A DNA stretch of 64,000 bases from an uncultured Rubrobacteraceae bacterium (GCA_963800975.1 CAWDDB010000013.1:110057-174056); one strand, 5' to 3'. Shown: positions 44,034 through 59,502, numbered from the stretch's first letter. Notes: a model not told the origin generated them from the letters alone. Translations and numbers: made by a program.

Positions 44034-44107
44034 GGGCCTGTAGCTCAGCCGGTTAGAGCGCTTCTCTGATAAGGAAGAGGTCCCTGGTTCGAGTCCAGGC
44101 AGGCCCA
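44034..44107 (+). tRNA. tRNA-Ile (anticodon GAU)
   Basis: Folds by hand into a cloverleaf: acceptor GGGCCUG/CAGGCCC, D arm GCUC..GAGC, anticodon arm CUUCU-CUGAUAA-GGAAG, T arm CCUGG-UUCGAGU-CCAGG, discriminator A. No encoded CCA. Confidence 0.95.
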
Positions 44108-44108
44108 C
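44061..44108 (+). repeat. attL-like copy of the 48-bp direct repeat (tRNA-Ile anticodon stem through 3' end)
   Basis: Identical to 59455-59502 over 48 bp (56 bp with two mismatches). Confidence 0.9.
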
Positions 44109-44179
44109 CCTCGGAATCCCTTTGTTGGTGGGACAAATCGTGAGCTGAGGCAAACGGCCGGAGGTTTCCCCGGCTGATT

Positions 44180-44190
44180 TTGACACCAAC
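44180..44190 (+). repeat. TTGACACCAAC motif, copy 1 (71 nt downstream of the attL core)
   Basis: Same 11-mer as at 59321 and 59573. TGACACCAACCCG is shared with 59334. Confidence 0.7.
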
Positions 44191-44285
44191 CCGAAGGCCA
44201 TCGGCGCCAGGGTTGCGACCGCCGAGGGCGGTTTCTCCGCCGAGGAAGCCCCGTCGGGCATCACTCGACCGCCCGACCGTGGGCA

Positions 44286-44333
44286 ATCTCTCCCCTCCTG
44301 ATCCCCCCTTCGGGGGATGCCGCTACCCCCGTC
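44286..44333 (+). promoter_or_regulatory. Conserved island element, copy A (palindrome ATCCCCC-CTTC-GGGGGAT at 44301-44318)
   Basis: About 85-90 % identical by eye to 52481-52528 and 55686-55733. TACAAA at 44341 lies 31.5 bp from the palindrome centre. ATG 44394 is downstream. Confidence 0.7.
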
Positions 44334-44393
44334 CTCCCGTTACAAATGCGAGTGGCGAAAGAAGACGGGCACAGGCCCGAAGGGAGCACGACC

Positions 44394-44612
44394 ATGCAGG
44401 ATAGAACCGCCACCAACTACCCCGTCGACGAGGAGGCCATCCGCGACCTCCTCCGCCGGAAGCTCCTCGACGACATAGGCAGGGGCGACGGCGGGTCCCT
44501 CGGCTCCCGATTCACCGGAGACGGCGAACCTGGCAGACGGGCACCACGCAAGCGGGAACGGCTCACTGCCCCTTACGGTCAATCCCTCGATCGAAACATA
44601 CGTCCCATTTGA
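44394..44612 (+). CDS. Small hypothetical protein (72 aa)
   Basis: ATG 44394 follows GAAGGGAG, downstream of element copy A. No recognisable domain. Confidence 0.35.
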   Translation: MQDRTATNYPVDEEAIRDLLRRKLLDDIGRGDGGSLGSRFTGDGEPGRRAPRKRERLTAPYGQSLDRNIRPI

Positions 44613-44733
44613 CTGCGACGCACCAGGAGCGCGACGGTCCGTCGCGTGAGCAGGAAGAAGTAGACGATGAATCGAGGTTCCGTTGACACGTGTGCATCTT
44701 CCAGTGCGGTCGCGCTAGGAAAGGAGTTTACGA

Positions 44734-45273
44734 ATGATCGGTGTGTTGATACTGGCCGGCGAGATCTCCTTCTGGGCCTTCGTACTCGGCGGGTTGATCT
44801 CGCGCTACCTGCTGCGCAGGCCGCGGTTGGGGGTGGCCCTGCTGCTGATGACGCCTGTGGTGGATCTTGCTCTCGTCGCCGCCACGGTGATCGACCTGCG
44901 CGCCGGGGCCACGGCCAGCCTCTTCCACGGCCTCGCTGCCGTCTACGTCGGCGTGTCGATAGCCTTCGGCCACAGGATGATCTGCTGGGCCGACGAGCGG
45001 TTCGCCCACCGGTTCGCCGGGGGGCCGCCGCCCGCGCGGCCGCCCAGGCACGGACCGGAGCGCGCCCGCCGCGAGCGGGAGGGATGGTACCGGCACCTCC
45101 TTGCGTGGGCGATCGGCAGCGCCTTGCTGCTAGGCATGGGCCTCCTCGTCGGGGACCCGTCCAGGACCGAGTCGCTCTCGGCCAGGGCGGCCCTGTGGAC
45201 CTTGATCCTCGCCATCGACTTCCTGTGGAGCTTCAGCTACACGCTCTGGCCCGGCGAGGCGAAGACGTCGTGA
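44734..45273 (+). CDS. Hypothetical membrane protein
   Basis: 179 aa with four hydrophobic helices separated by an Arg/Pro-rich loop. SD AAAGGAG lies upstream. Confidence 0.6.
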   Translation: MIGVLILAGEISFWAFVLGGLISRYLLRRPRLGVALLLMTPVVDLALVAATVIDLRAGATASLFHGLAAVYVGVSIAFGHRMICWADERFAHRFAGGPPPARPPRHGPERARREREGWYRHLLAWAIGSALLLGMGLLVGDPSRTESLSARAALWTLILAIDFLWSFSYTLWPGEAKTS

Positions 45274-45329
45274 GACCGCCTGGATAGTCGAGCGTGGAAT
45301 GTCACCCGAACGAGGAAAGGGATCGACCG

Positions 45330-57010: not shown

Positions 57011-57089
57011 CGTTAGCGTACGTTCTCGTGCCGTTGCTACCAAGGTCCAGGTCGGTGGCCTCCGCGGGCGAGCGCTGTCCTCGAAACAC

Positions 57090-57815
57090 CTAACCGACGC
57101 GTCCCCGGCGGTCTCCTTCTCCTGCGACGGCCTCGATGCCCCTGACGAGGATGTCGAGGCCGGCCTCGAAACCGGCCTCGAAGTCGTAGCGCGCGCCCTC
57201 CTCCCCGAGCGTCCCGAAGACCCGGCGCAGCGCCGGAACTTTCCCCGCCGGCTGCGTCTGGATGCGTGCCAGAATTTCCCGGCCGATGTCGAACCCCCCG
57301 GAAGGATTCGACGCCTCGCCCAGCGCGAACCCGTGGACGAAATCGACCAACGAGTCCGCGGCCCGCACGATCATCGCGGGAGGGAGCCCCGACTCCTCCA
57401 ACGCCTCGTAGAGCGGCTCGCTGCCCAGGAGCACGGCCTCCGAGACCGCGGCGGCGTCGGAGAAGATCTGCAACGCGAGGTTGGGGTGCGAAAGTACAAC
57501 GTCCCGGTGAGCGTGGGCATAAGCGCGCACGCGCTCCTGCCAGGGCAGGCCCTCGGAGGGCGGCATCCGCATCCGGGAGAAGACGACCCCGACGAGGCCC
57601 GAGACCACGGCGCCCTTGCCGGGCAGGTGGTGGTAGATCGACATCGGGCTCACCCCGAGGTCTGCGGCCAGCCGGCGCATCGTCAGGGCGTCCAAGCCTT
57701 CCCGGTCCACAAGCTCGAGCGCCGCCGCGAGGATACCCTCGCGCGTCAATGGCTCCTGCCCCGCCCTCGGACGACCGGCCCTACGCCCCTGTTCCTTCTC
57801 CCTTTCGCAACCCAT
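57090..57815 (-). CDS. TetR/AcrR family transcriptional regulator
   Basis: N-terminal HTH LTMRRLAADLGVSPMSIYHHLPGK, with SD AGGAGG upstream of ATG 57815. Confidence 0.9.
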   Translation of the reverse strand: MGCEREKEQGRRAGRPRAGQEPLTREGILAAALELVDREGLDALTMRRLAADLGVSPMSIYHHLPGKGAVVSGLVGVVFSRMRMPPSEGLPWQERVRAYAHAHRDVVLSHPNLALQIFSDAAAVSEAVLLGSEPLYEALEESGLPPAMIVRAADSLVDFVHGFALGEASNPSGGFDIGREILARIQTQPAGKVPALRRVFGTLGEEGARYDFEAGFEAGLDILVRGIEAVAGEGDRRGRVG

Positions 57816-57830
57816 CCTCGAGACCTCCTT

Positions 57831-57881
57831 GATTAATCATACACAGTATGTATAATCGCAAGTAATTATACGATGTATAAT
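57831..57881. promoter_or_regulatory. AT-rich divergent promoter/operator region between the tetR and SDR genes
   Basis: Palindrome GATTAATC (57831-38). IR ATACA-N5-TGTAT (57839-53). Perfect IR GTATAAT-N8-ATTATAC (57850-71). Direct repeat ATGTATAAT x2 (57848, 57873). TATAAT boxes sit on the plus strand (57851, 57876) and the minus strand (57865-70). Confidence 0.6.
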
Positions 57882-57905
57882 TTTTGGAAACGTGAGGAGG
57901 TCGTT

Positions 57906-58820
57906 ATGGCGCCGCGGTTGGAAGGGAAGGTTGCGTTGGTGGCCGGGGGAACGCGCGGGGCGGGGCGTGGGATCTCGGTCGAGCTGGGAGCTGCGGGGGC
58001 CACGGTCTACGTGACCGGACGCTCCACGCGGGGGCGCCCCTCCGAGTACGACCGCCCCGAGACGATCGAGGAGACGGCCGCCCTGGTGGACGAGGCTGGC
58101 GGAAGTGGCGTCGCCGTTCGGGTCGACCATCTGGAACCGGATGAGGTGCGGGCCCTGGTGGAGCGCATCGAGGGCGAGCAGGGCCGTCTCGACGTGCTCG
58201 TCAACGACGTGTGGGGGGCCGAGCACCTTACCGAGTGGAATGTCCCCGTGTGGGAGCACTCCCTGGAGAAGGGGTTGCGAACACTGAGGTTGGCGATCGA
58301 CACGCACATCACGACCAGCCACTTCGCCCTGCCCCTCCTGATCAAGAACGAGGGCGGATTGGTCGTCGAGATGACCGACGGCACCGCAGAGTACAACGTC
58401 GCCAACTACAGGCTGTCGCTGTACTACGACCTGGCGAAGACGTGCGTCATCCGCATGGCGTGGGCCCAGGCTCAGGAGCTCGCGCCCCACGGGTGTACGG
58501 CGGTCGCCCTGACACCAGGCTGGCTGCGCTCGGAGATGATGCTCGACATCTACGGCGTGGGCGAGTCGAACTGGCGCGATGCGACCGCCGCGCAGCCGCA
58601 CTTCGCCATCTCCGAGACGCCGCGTTACGTGGGACGGGCCGTGGCCCACCTCGCTGCTGACCCCAAGGTCGCGCGTTGGAACGGTAGCTCCCTTTCTAGC
58701 GGCGGGCTCGCCAAGGAGTACGGCTTCACGGACCTCGACGGCTCTAGGCCCGACGCCTGGCGCTACCTCGTGGAGGTCCAAGACGCCGGCCTGCCGGCCG
58801 ACACCACCGGGTACCGGTAA
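57906..58820 (+). CDS. SDR family oxidoreductase
   Basis: ATG 57906 follows GTGAGGAGG. VAGGTRGAGRGISVEL is the glycine-rich NAD(P) motif, with a Rossmann-type layout. Confidence 0.85.
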   Translation: MAPRLEGKVALVAGGTRGAGRGISVELGAAGATVYVTGRSTRGRPSEYDRPETIEETAALVDEAGGSGVAVRVDHLEPDEVRALVERIEGEQGRLDVLVNDVWGAEHLTEWNVPVWEHSLEKGLRTLRLAIDTHITTSHFALPLLIKNEGGLVVEMTDGTAEYNVANYRLSLYYDLAKTCVIRMAWAQAQELAPHGCTAVALTPGWLRSEMMLDIYGVGESNWRDATAAQPHFAISETPRYVGRAVAHLAADPKVARWNGSSLSSGGLAKEYGFTDLDGSRPDAWRYLVEVQDAGLPADTTGYR

Positions 58821-59320
58821 CGCCAGGGGCAGAGGACTCCGCCATCCGCCCGGAACGCGCCTAGGACAGGGTCCGAACACCAACACCCGCGAGAGCACAC
58901 TCCGAGAGGATCAGACGGTGCCGATGCCCTCGCCGGAACCGGGCCGCGGCCAAAGCGGAGCGTCCGCTTCGGGGAGAGCTGTGGAAGCCGCCACCAGCCG
59001 CAGCGTGACCCGCGCCGCGTGAAGTCGGCGGCGCGTCCGGTCTCGGCCGGAGATCCTCTCGCACCAGGTTGCCTCCGGCTGCCGCCTCTGCGGGTCCGGA
59101 CTCTGTTTTCTCTCACCCTGTACGTAACCGACATCCGCGTGTCTCATTGCCCATGACTACGGACCAGTTCCTACACCATGTTTTTGAGACCGGCTTTGAT
59201 ACATGGTGTGGACGCCAGAGCGGAGGTTGTCCACACGCCTGCGGGACGTCTTTATACCGTTCGTTCGCGAGACTCCGGGGGCCCAACCACCGTGGGTCCC
59301 GATCGGTGCCGCGATCCGGT

Positions 59321-59343
59321 TTGACACCAACGCTGACACCAAC
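59321..59343 (+). repeat. Tandem TTGACACCAAC / CTGACACCAAC motifs (copies 2 and 3), 111-134 nt upstream of the attR core
   Basis: The sequence is TTGACACCAACGCTGACACCAACCCG. Confidence 0.7.
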
Positions 59344-59454
59344 CCGGCCGGCACCCCGCGACACCCGGCGAACCGACGAACCTCGGACACACCGCCAAAC
59401 GGCCCATATAAGCAGGATTCGCGGACGCTCCGGTACAGGACGGTAAACGATCAC

Positions 59455-59502
59455 CTTCTCTGATAAGGAAGAGGTCCCTGGTTCGAGTCCAGGCAGGCCC
59501 AC
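59455..59502 (+). repeat. attR-like copy of the 48-bp direct repeat (3' half of tRNA-Ile, no 5' half)
   Basis: Identical to 44061-44108. The preceding bases (ACGGTAAACGATCAC) cannot form the acceptor or D arms, so this is a tRNA fragment and not a second gene. Confidence 0.9.

Follow-up and report, generated by a model that had tools for sequence, protein, structure and literature searches.

A tRNA-Ile-anchored island in a Rubrobacteraceae genome as the probable remnant of an integrative element that lost its integrase

A 64,000-nucleotide stretch of DNA from an uncultured Rubrobacteraceae bacterium (GCA_963800975.1, CAWDDB010000013.1:110057-174056), the whole of which is referred to here as the window, carries a 15.4-kb island at 44109-59454 that lies between two copies of the 3' part of a tRNA-Ile gene. 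We conclude that this island is very probably the remnant of a Rubrobacteraceae integrative element that targeted tRNA-Ile(GAU) and has lost its integrase, and that it resembles the cis-mobilizable elements (CIMEs). An earlier reading of the window by a model, made from the sequence alone (the original prediction), had interpreted the repeated tRNA 3' part as the attL/attR footprint of a tyrosine recombinase; this interpretation was supported by related loci that carry an integrase gene (int), by repeats in the arms that flank the cores, and by an arm shared with L086, a metagenome-assembled genome (MAG). L-numbers here are labels of the related loci and contigs that we compared with the window.

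The single tRNA gene in the window, an intact tRNA-Ile(GAT) gene on the + strand, was located at 44034-44109 by ARAGORN and was matched at 44034-44107 by the Rfam tRNA model RF00005 (73 bits). Its anticodon, GAT, is at 44068-44070, and a promoter-like sequence (TTGTCA-17-TAAATT, 43985-44013) lies upstream. The 3' part of this gene, which the element would have regenerated upon integration, forms the attL core (44061-44108) and is identical in 48 of 48 positions to the attR core (59455-59502), with both copies on the + strand in direct orientation. A repeat search extended the match to 56 nt (44061-44116 versus 59455-59510) at 96% identity with two mismatches, confirming the extent that had been predicted for the exact and the longer repeat. 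Additionally, a 23-mer from the tRNA 3' end occurred in two exact copies in the window and in none of 100 shuffles. The 5' boundary of the repeat is tRNA position 27, which opens the anticodon stem, and the repeat covers the discriminator region and the tRNA 3' end.

The prediction that the second copy lacks a tRNA 5' half also held, as alignment of the sequence upstream of 59455 with this half gave no similarity, and we read the copy at 59455 as a displaced tRNA-Ile 3' fragment and not as a second tRNA. Segmental duplication, which the original prediction had named as a possible competing source of this copy, was rejected because the similarity collapses directly 5' of 59455, at the anticodon-stem boundary. 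An intact tRNA gene with a displaced fragment in direct orientation on the same replicon, and an att block that begins at a canonical tRNA sublocation (anticodon-centred or T-stem; here position 27), are two of the Islander criteria for a genomic island, and both were found here.

Sequences resembling the arms of an integrase attachment site were retained next to both cores. The 10-mer TGACACCAAC occurred four times exactly in the 64-kb window, where 0.02 occurrences were expected, with every copy on the + strand and less than 135 nt from a core. One copy (44181-44190), 73 nt after the attL core, stands behind a hairpin (44155-44176) and a T-run, and together these make up the P' arm (44109-44247, + strand), which we delimited by alignment to L086, blastn and folding. 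Two tandem copies (59322-59331 and 59334-59343) lie 121-133 nt before the attR core, within a non-coding P arm (58821-59454, + strand). The fourth copy, at 59574, is outside the island, 72 nt after the attR core and behind a second hairpin (59534-59562). These arm hairpins are real but are no more stable than shuffled sequence, and a simple scan called no terminators. A further sequence, TCCCACCAAC, at 44124-44133 on the - strand, is an inverted arm repeat with 2 mismatches that is 15-25 nt from the attL core and is kept in L086; it may be an extra site for Int or an accessory protein, or may be due to chance, as the window has 51 matches at <=2 mismatches.

The 630 bp before attR had been described originally as lacking a convincing coding frame, and we likewise observed no coding frame signal in this stretch and no family for any of its open reading frames (ORFs). 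However, the accompanying expectation that int should have been located in these 630 bp was not upheld, as the stretch is the P arm with its repeats at 59322-59343. From the arrangement in relatives, int would rather be expected on the attL side, at roughly 44.2-45.4 kb on the - strand.

The original prediction that no integrase or excisionase ORF or remnant is present was supported by Pfam, PHROGs, NCBIfam and tblastn. When every plausible ORF between 43.4 and 63.8 kb was searched with Pfam, no integrase or excisionase was found, nor was either found, at E<=1, among the weak ORFs adjoining attL and attR. PHROGs found neither in a partly overlapping set of weak ORFs, and NCBIfam, run only on the unannotated island ORFs and the right-flank ORFs, gave nothing relevant. 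When five integrase sequences from relatives were compared with the whole window by tblastn, the best match (E=0.006) was inside a housekeeping gene at 39.5 kb, and a match of 14 amino acids at 59765-59724 (E=0.55) was not significant. In the left 44 kb, 20 of the larger ORFs were searched with Pfam and encoded housekeeping metabolism only. Among the island ORFs, these four methods detected no int, excisionase (xis), relaxase, type IV secretion system or FtsK-like genes, and no Rep, Tra, or phage structural or lysis genes were detected there by Pfam (all ORFs) or PHROGs (unannotated ORFs).

Comparison with the MAG L086 (CAVYMT010000005.1) provided direct evidence for the loss of the integrase. 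The blastn alignment of L086 to the window takes in the nuclease gene upstream of the tRNA and the tRNA itself, and continues to 44245. Identity is only ~62% in the spacer between the nuclease and tRNA genes, whereas it is 100% over the tRNA and the 62 nt that follow, and ~90% in the remainder of the arm. L086 keeps both arm repeats, and the window lacks 11 nt that amount to exactly one repeat. Past the arm, L086 continues into a truncated int (residues 201-322), and the window diverges from it at ~44246, into the cargo. Because the homology with L086 stops at ~44245, where L086 runs into int, we consider int and xis to have been deleted or replaced in the window from ~44246 inwards, as judged from this alignment. 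That the arm is much better conserved than the host DNA beside it is more consistent with the acquisition of related elements than with vertical descent; alternatively, a functional constraint on the arm might have conserved it.

In Rubrobacteraceae relatives, the same tRNA-Ile gene is an integration hot spot of elements with a tyrosine integrase. We scanned one genome per species, nearly all of them MAGs, covering 68 Rubrobacteraceae loci; the tRNA was located in 62 of these, and 46 had enough downstream sequence to be informative. Downstream of tRNA-Ile, 8 of these 46 species had a full-length int, 5 a partial int, 11 only an arm relic, and 22 neither, so that element DNA is at the site in 24 species, 11 of which have an arm without int. 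Where present, int lies on the strand opposite to tRNA-Ile, about 100-250 nt beyond it. The tRNA is followed first by a ~40-nt spacer and a GC hairpin with its T-run, then by two direct repeats of 10-11 nt in tandem, and then by the int stop codon. The tandem repeat varies with the type of element (TGACACCAAC, GTGCAGCAAC, GTACACCA, TTGACGAC or TACTGCAAC). These tandem 10-mers are predicted to be arm-type Int-binding sites, for which specificity to the element type would be expected. Relatives have only one tRNA-Ile at the site. To the left of the tRNA, the nuclease, DUF5654, RtcB-like and biotin-carboxylase genes are conserved in relatives, and for the bifunctional-nuclease gene that directly precedes the tRNA (43394-43894, - strand), the closest homologues were found in Rubrobacteraceae MAGs.

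Cognate integrases of the TGACACCAAC type were found in L001, L080, L112 and L129. L080 and L112 have intact modules, with an int of 384-386 amino acids that has Phage_int_SAM_3 and Phage_integrase domains. In L080, the 5-6 kb beside int encode an HTH_17 (excisionase-type) protein, a RES toxin, a phosphoesterase and an HTH_3 protein, and no Rep or Tra; more generally, no conjugation or mobilization genes were seen in the <=10 kb that could be read beside int in relatives. The cognate integrases are 33-38% identical to the best-matching integrases of phage records among the matches listed. Their best full-length matches of solved structure were XerA and the Int protein entries 6en0, 6emy and 6emz, whereas 2kkp matched only as a short N-terminal-domain fragment. 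On these comparisons, integrases of the L080/L112 type are ordinary.

Several single loci illustrate the states in which this site occurs. L130, the complete genome of the cultured isolate Rubrobacter marinus SCSIO 52915 (NZ_CP045121.1), belongs to the arm-only group: its tRNA-Ile is followed by a hairpin and two copies of TGACACCAAC, and the next 9.7 kb contain no integrase. In L001, a relative with 94% nuclease identity, the C-terminal third of int (8528-9574) is out of frame and the catalytic HxxR...Y region is recognizable only in another frame, which could reflect either decay or an indel error of long-read assembly. L106 (Actinobacteria bacterium isolate 28), a genome of the Rubrobacteraceae type, has 3.9 kb between tRNA-Ile and a partial second core (1358-1405 and 5267-5300, in the orientation with the tRNA on the + strand); this second core is 35 nt long and 97% identical, an arm repeat is present, and there is no integrase. 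L106 is a smaller parallel of the island in the window. Furthermore, in the metagenome contigs L022, L023 and L025-L029, arm-like sequence comes after a partial copy of the tRNA; in L023 and L029, the arm repeats can be seen in tandem, together with the 3' end of int. The partial tRNA copies in L022-L029 start at the same anticodon-stem position or within ~4 nt of it. We interpret the copies in these seven contigs as attP sites or tandem junctions.

These observations can be combined into a model of how the island arose. In intact elements, the attP carries the part of the tRNA between the anticodon stem and the 3' end, after which come the hairpin, two tandem 10-nt repeats, int on the opposite strand, and an HTH_17 Xis-like gene. 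The tyrosine integrase would have inserted the element, probably by a crossover in or near the anticodon loop (predicted: the 7-nt loop CTGATAA), and integration would have regenerated the tRNA at attL while displacing its original 3' half, which came to lie at attR. In the window, the two cores and the two arms are still present, with the P' arm reduced to one of its two repeats, and the region from ~44246 inwards, including int and xis, would have been deleted or replaced by an ordinary accessory cluster of the Rubrobacter type. After excision, the predicted attB would be the tRNA 5' half, the 48-mer and TCTCAGAACGCTTACC, and the predicted attP on the circle would be ...ACGGTAAACGATCAC, the 48-mer and CCTCGGAATCCCTTTG. 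Because the region with int and xis was deleted or replaced, the island is no longer self-mobile. The 48-nt repeat, the arm repeats, the homology of the arm to that of an int-bearing relative, the absence of int and the variability of the site are observed directly; that Int binds the arm repeats, where the crossover took place, in which order the events occurred and whether any mobility is left are inferred.

This model also has the element inserting beside the remains of an earlier related one, that is, by tandem accretion. The 17-mer TGACACCAACGCGGCGG (59574-59590) to the right of attR is found unchanged in the arm of the L001 element that carries int, and a 16-mer of it, TGACACCAACGCGGCG, is also present in L129. 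Together with the hairpin at 59534-59562, it forms what is probably the P' arm relic of an older element (59503-59590, + strand). No int was found behind this arm-like stretch, and homology with the L021 chromosome starts at 59755, with VTT/DedA-like and LPG-synthase genes. The simplest interpretation is that the earlier, related element had shrunk to a relic of <=~250 bp by the time the present one was inserted into the regenerated tRNA. The right flank contains a VTT/DedA-like gene and an LPG_synthase_TM-acyltransferase fusion gene (60045-62626 in the window, 9359-11914 in L021). The fusion is rare, with three full-length homologues. In L021, the one relative with context, this pair sits among unrelated genes, far from any tRNA, and the right flank is itself accessory for this reason. 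Beyond 62 kb, GC content falls to 0.60-0.63.

Several results weigh against the island being the remnant of such an element, or limit what can be concluded about its interior. Clusters that resemble the cargo, with a LuxR/MalT or two-component regulator, a small-protein cassette including the ParB/Srx-like protein, TetR, M28 peptidase, hydrolases and SDR, occur elsewhere in related genomes, away from tRNA-Ile and from int; for example, the hydrolase gene at 46068-46847 has a 75% nucleotide-identical homologue in L021, 2 kb from the VTT-LPG genes. The composition of the island is also host-like, with a GC content of 0.676 as in the flank and a tetranucleotide distance that is only mildly raised; the reference set contained the compared segments, and hence this is weak evidence either way. 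Because of the cargo-like clusters elsewhere in relatives and the host-like composition, the interior may be largely host-derived Rubrobacteraceae DNA that was carried by the element or swapped into it. Additionally, a third att copy that would close the older element was not found in the remaining 4.5 kb of the window, and the polymorphism of the site is between species, not between strains. Finally, the original prediction had proposed a search for an empty tRNA-Ile site or a circle junction, and our scan of metagenomes for four junction types returned 8 contigs that contained neither the empty site nor the excised circle and represented only other or more distant elements.

Two further searches concerned viral sequences. 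The att core is absent from IMG/VR. A two-repeat pattern gave 38 matches there that cannot contain the att core; we judged them, uninspected, to be unrelated coding repeats from their 12-nt periodicity and their hosts, and the pattern is too unspecific. The refuting case that the original prediction had envisaged, in which all relatives carry the same 15 kb in the same place, was not what we observed: none of the island proteins or right-flank proteins was encoded within <=10 kb downstream of tRNA-Ile in the 59 relatives for which the tRNA had been located, so that 0 of 59 have the cargo at this site.

We considered whether the island might instead be a functional CIME or satellite, which is excised and reintegrated by cognate Int and Xis that are supplied from elsewhere or by an incoming element. 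The cores have remained identical at 48 of 48 positions although the attR copy has no tRNA function that would conserve it, arm repeats are kept in both arms (two in P, one in P'), cognate integrases with the same repeat exist in the four relatives named above, and cis-mobilization of CIMEs is documented in other phyla (PMC5704250). However, one of the two P' repeats is gone, the 64-kb window has no cognate int, no attB or attP junction was found in the metagenomes, and one cargo gene is frameshifted, and we consider such continued mobility unlikely. Because of the lost arm repeat and the frameshifted cargo gene in particular, a fossil is favoured over an island that can still be mobilized.

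A related proposal, also unlikely, is that the island is a functional, integrase-less passenger of the widespread Rubrobacteraceae tRNA-Ile integrases, in cis or in trans, and that the arm often outlives int in these species because the hairpin brought in by the element may have been recruited as a terminator or 3'-processing signal of the essential tRNA-Ile. If this were true, selection on the tRNA-Ile hairpin would preserve recombination-competent att arms.

It is also conceivable that the island never had an integrase of its own and originated as an attP-only circle, with core and arms, that was integrated in trans as integrase-less satellites are. This would explain why no trace of int was seen, not even a pseudogene fragment. 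However, the attL arm is homologous to L086 over ~136 nt, and there leads straight into the int remnant; the homology breaks off abruptly at ~44245, as expected for a deletion or replacement; and int directly adjoins the arm in every related locus with a readable int. We therefore regard this origin as very unlikely. Hardly any probability attaches to the second copy being a truncated duplicate tRNA, a segmental duplication or an assembly mis-join at a shared tRNA fragment, which the apparent derivation of the source from a 620-kb contig known only in assembly collections, and of nearly all relatives from MAGs, might suggest, since the 5' similarity ends exactly at the anticodon-stem boundary, independent elements have this same boundary, arm repeats flank the copy on both sides, relatives have a single tRNA-Ile here, and a 48-nt repeat would be too short to collapse a contig of this size.

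The remnant of an integrated element, as we interpret the island, can be compared with several known systems. In pSAM2, the tyrosine integrase acts on the 3' part of a tRNA, and the int-xis module is adjacent to attP. The original prediction had likened the island to pSAM2-type actinomycete elements, and the analogy stands insofar as the host is actinobacterial and the target is a tRNA 3' part; the similarity to pSAM2 and SLP1, which are actinomycete integrative and conjugative elements (AICEs), extends to the position of int-xis beside attP. However, it is no more than an analogy, and no Rep or Tra genes were seen: the AICE combination of int-xis, Rep and an FtsK/SpoIIIE-like Tra is not present in the island, which has no Rep, FtsK-like Tra or Spd, and none of these was found in the 5-6 kb beside int in L080. 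Nor were the structural or lysis genes of a prophage detected in the island by Pfam on all ORFs; on the unannotated ORFs, PHROGs gave only one weak, ParB-like match.

The closest resemblance is to CIMEs, such as those related to ICESt1 of Streptococcus thermophilus, which keep attL and attR and have lost their recombination genes (PMC5704250). The island has retained attL and attR, with perfect cores and with arm repeats on both inner sides, and has lost its integration genes; as far as sequence can define a CIME, by att sites kept and recombination genes lost, it qualifies. Like CIMEs, it has attL and attR at a tRNA 3' end and lies beside the remains of a related element, and tandem accretion has been described for CIMEs and for integrative and conjugative elements (ICEs) (PMC5704250). 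Unlike CIMEs, it shows no sign of a conjugative ancestor (an ICE or an integrative and mobilizable element), its host belongs to a deep-branching actinobacterial lineage, only ~136 nt of the original backbone can still be recognized, and its mobilization is putative.

In Islander, anticodon-centred att sites are the commoner of two attP site classes (2083 of 3919), and an integrase gene is required inside the island (PMC4383910). The island resembles the anticodon-centred class, with an intact tRNA gene and a displaced 3' fragment in direct orientation and an identity block from the anticodon stem to the 3' end. Unlike the Islander islands, it has no tyrosine integrase within the interval, and it would be filtered out.

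The island probably represents a well-known kind of genomic fossil and opens no new mechanism. It does provide a precisely mapped case, in the little-studied Rubrobacteraceae, of the decay of a tRNA-linked island, in which the integrase disappears before the att cores and arms do, and later elements are added beside old relics. For annotation, a tRNA-Ile(GAU) gene beside a bifunctional-nuclease gene can be taken as an integration hot spot, in which int is expected on the tRNA side and the 10-mers after the hairpin identify the type of element.

The cargo block itself (44248-58820) has no mobility genes that could be detected by Pfam, tblastn, frame analysis with GC at third codon positions (GC3) and translations. 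In order, it contains a small ORF (44391-44612), a two-transmembrane (2TM) protein gene (44734-45273), the gene of a small ParB/Srx-like protein (45330-46028), an alpha/beta hydrolase gene (46068-46847), an M28 peptidase pseudogene (46840-49178), a MalT/LuxR regulator gene (49711-52428), a second alpha/beta hydrolase gene (52549-53451), genes for an ABC ATPase (53686-54693) and an ABC-2 permease (about 54690-55484), a small ORF (55785-55982), a gene of an unknown protein (55978-56667), a TetR gene on the - strand (57090-57815) and an SDR gene (57873-58820). Of the genes listed originally, the MalT/LuxR regulator, the ABC ATPase with the ABC-2 permease, the TetR-SDR pair and three hydrolases (two alpha/beta hydrolases and the M28 peptidase) were recovered, and the ParB-like assignment remained weak: the ORF at 45330-46028 had no family in Pfam or NCBIfam, and was named from a PHROG match at E=0.011 and a DGHHR motif.

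Decayed or frameshifted ORFs had also been predicted, and the M28 peptidase gene is such a case, with a frameshift at ~48654-48714. By tblastn against an 809-amino-acid homologue, residues 22-638 are in frame 1 up to 48654 and residues 656-809 are in frame 3 from 48714; this reading in two frames indicates either a pseudogene or an assembly indel.

The DGHHR (ParB/Srx-like) protein belongs to a ~160-amino-acid type that has no Pfam family and gave 1859 matches in Rubrobacter-like metagenomes. In L068-L076, it is part of a conserved cassette of four small genes beside regulators, peptidases and hydrolases. The protein in the window has an additional ~55 amino acids at its C-terminus, which look like a read-through.

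A conserved element of ~85 nt (GATCTCTCCCCCCTGATCCCCCCTTCGGGGGATGCCGCTACCC...TAC..) occurs in the window at 44288-44371, 52480-52567 and 55685-55766; three island genes have their start codons ~60 nt downstream of it, and the first copy starts ~45 nt past the breakpoint at which int was lost. In relatives it was found in L021 (13609-13695), L072 (113-199) and L074 (1267-1353), where it precedes a hydrolase gene and a RibD_C gene. A structured RNA was considered and rejected, as the three copies have no common fold, unremarkable z-scores and no Rfam family. The 7-bp palindrome of the element shows compensatory changes (ATCCCCC/GGGGGAT and ATCCACC/GGTGGAT), and the element could serve as an operator or promoter and might do so for the MalT/LuxR regulator.

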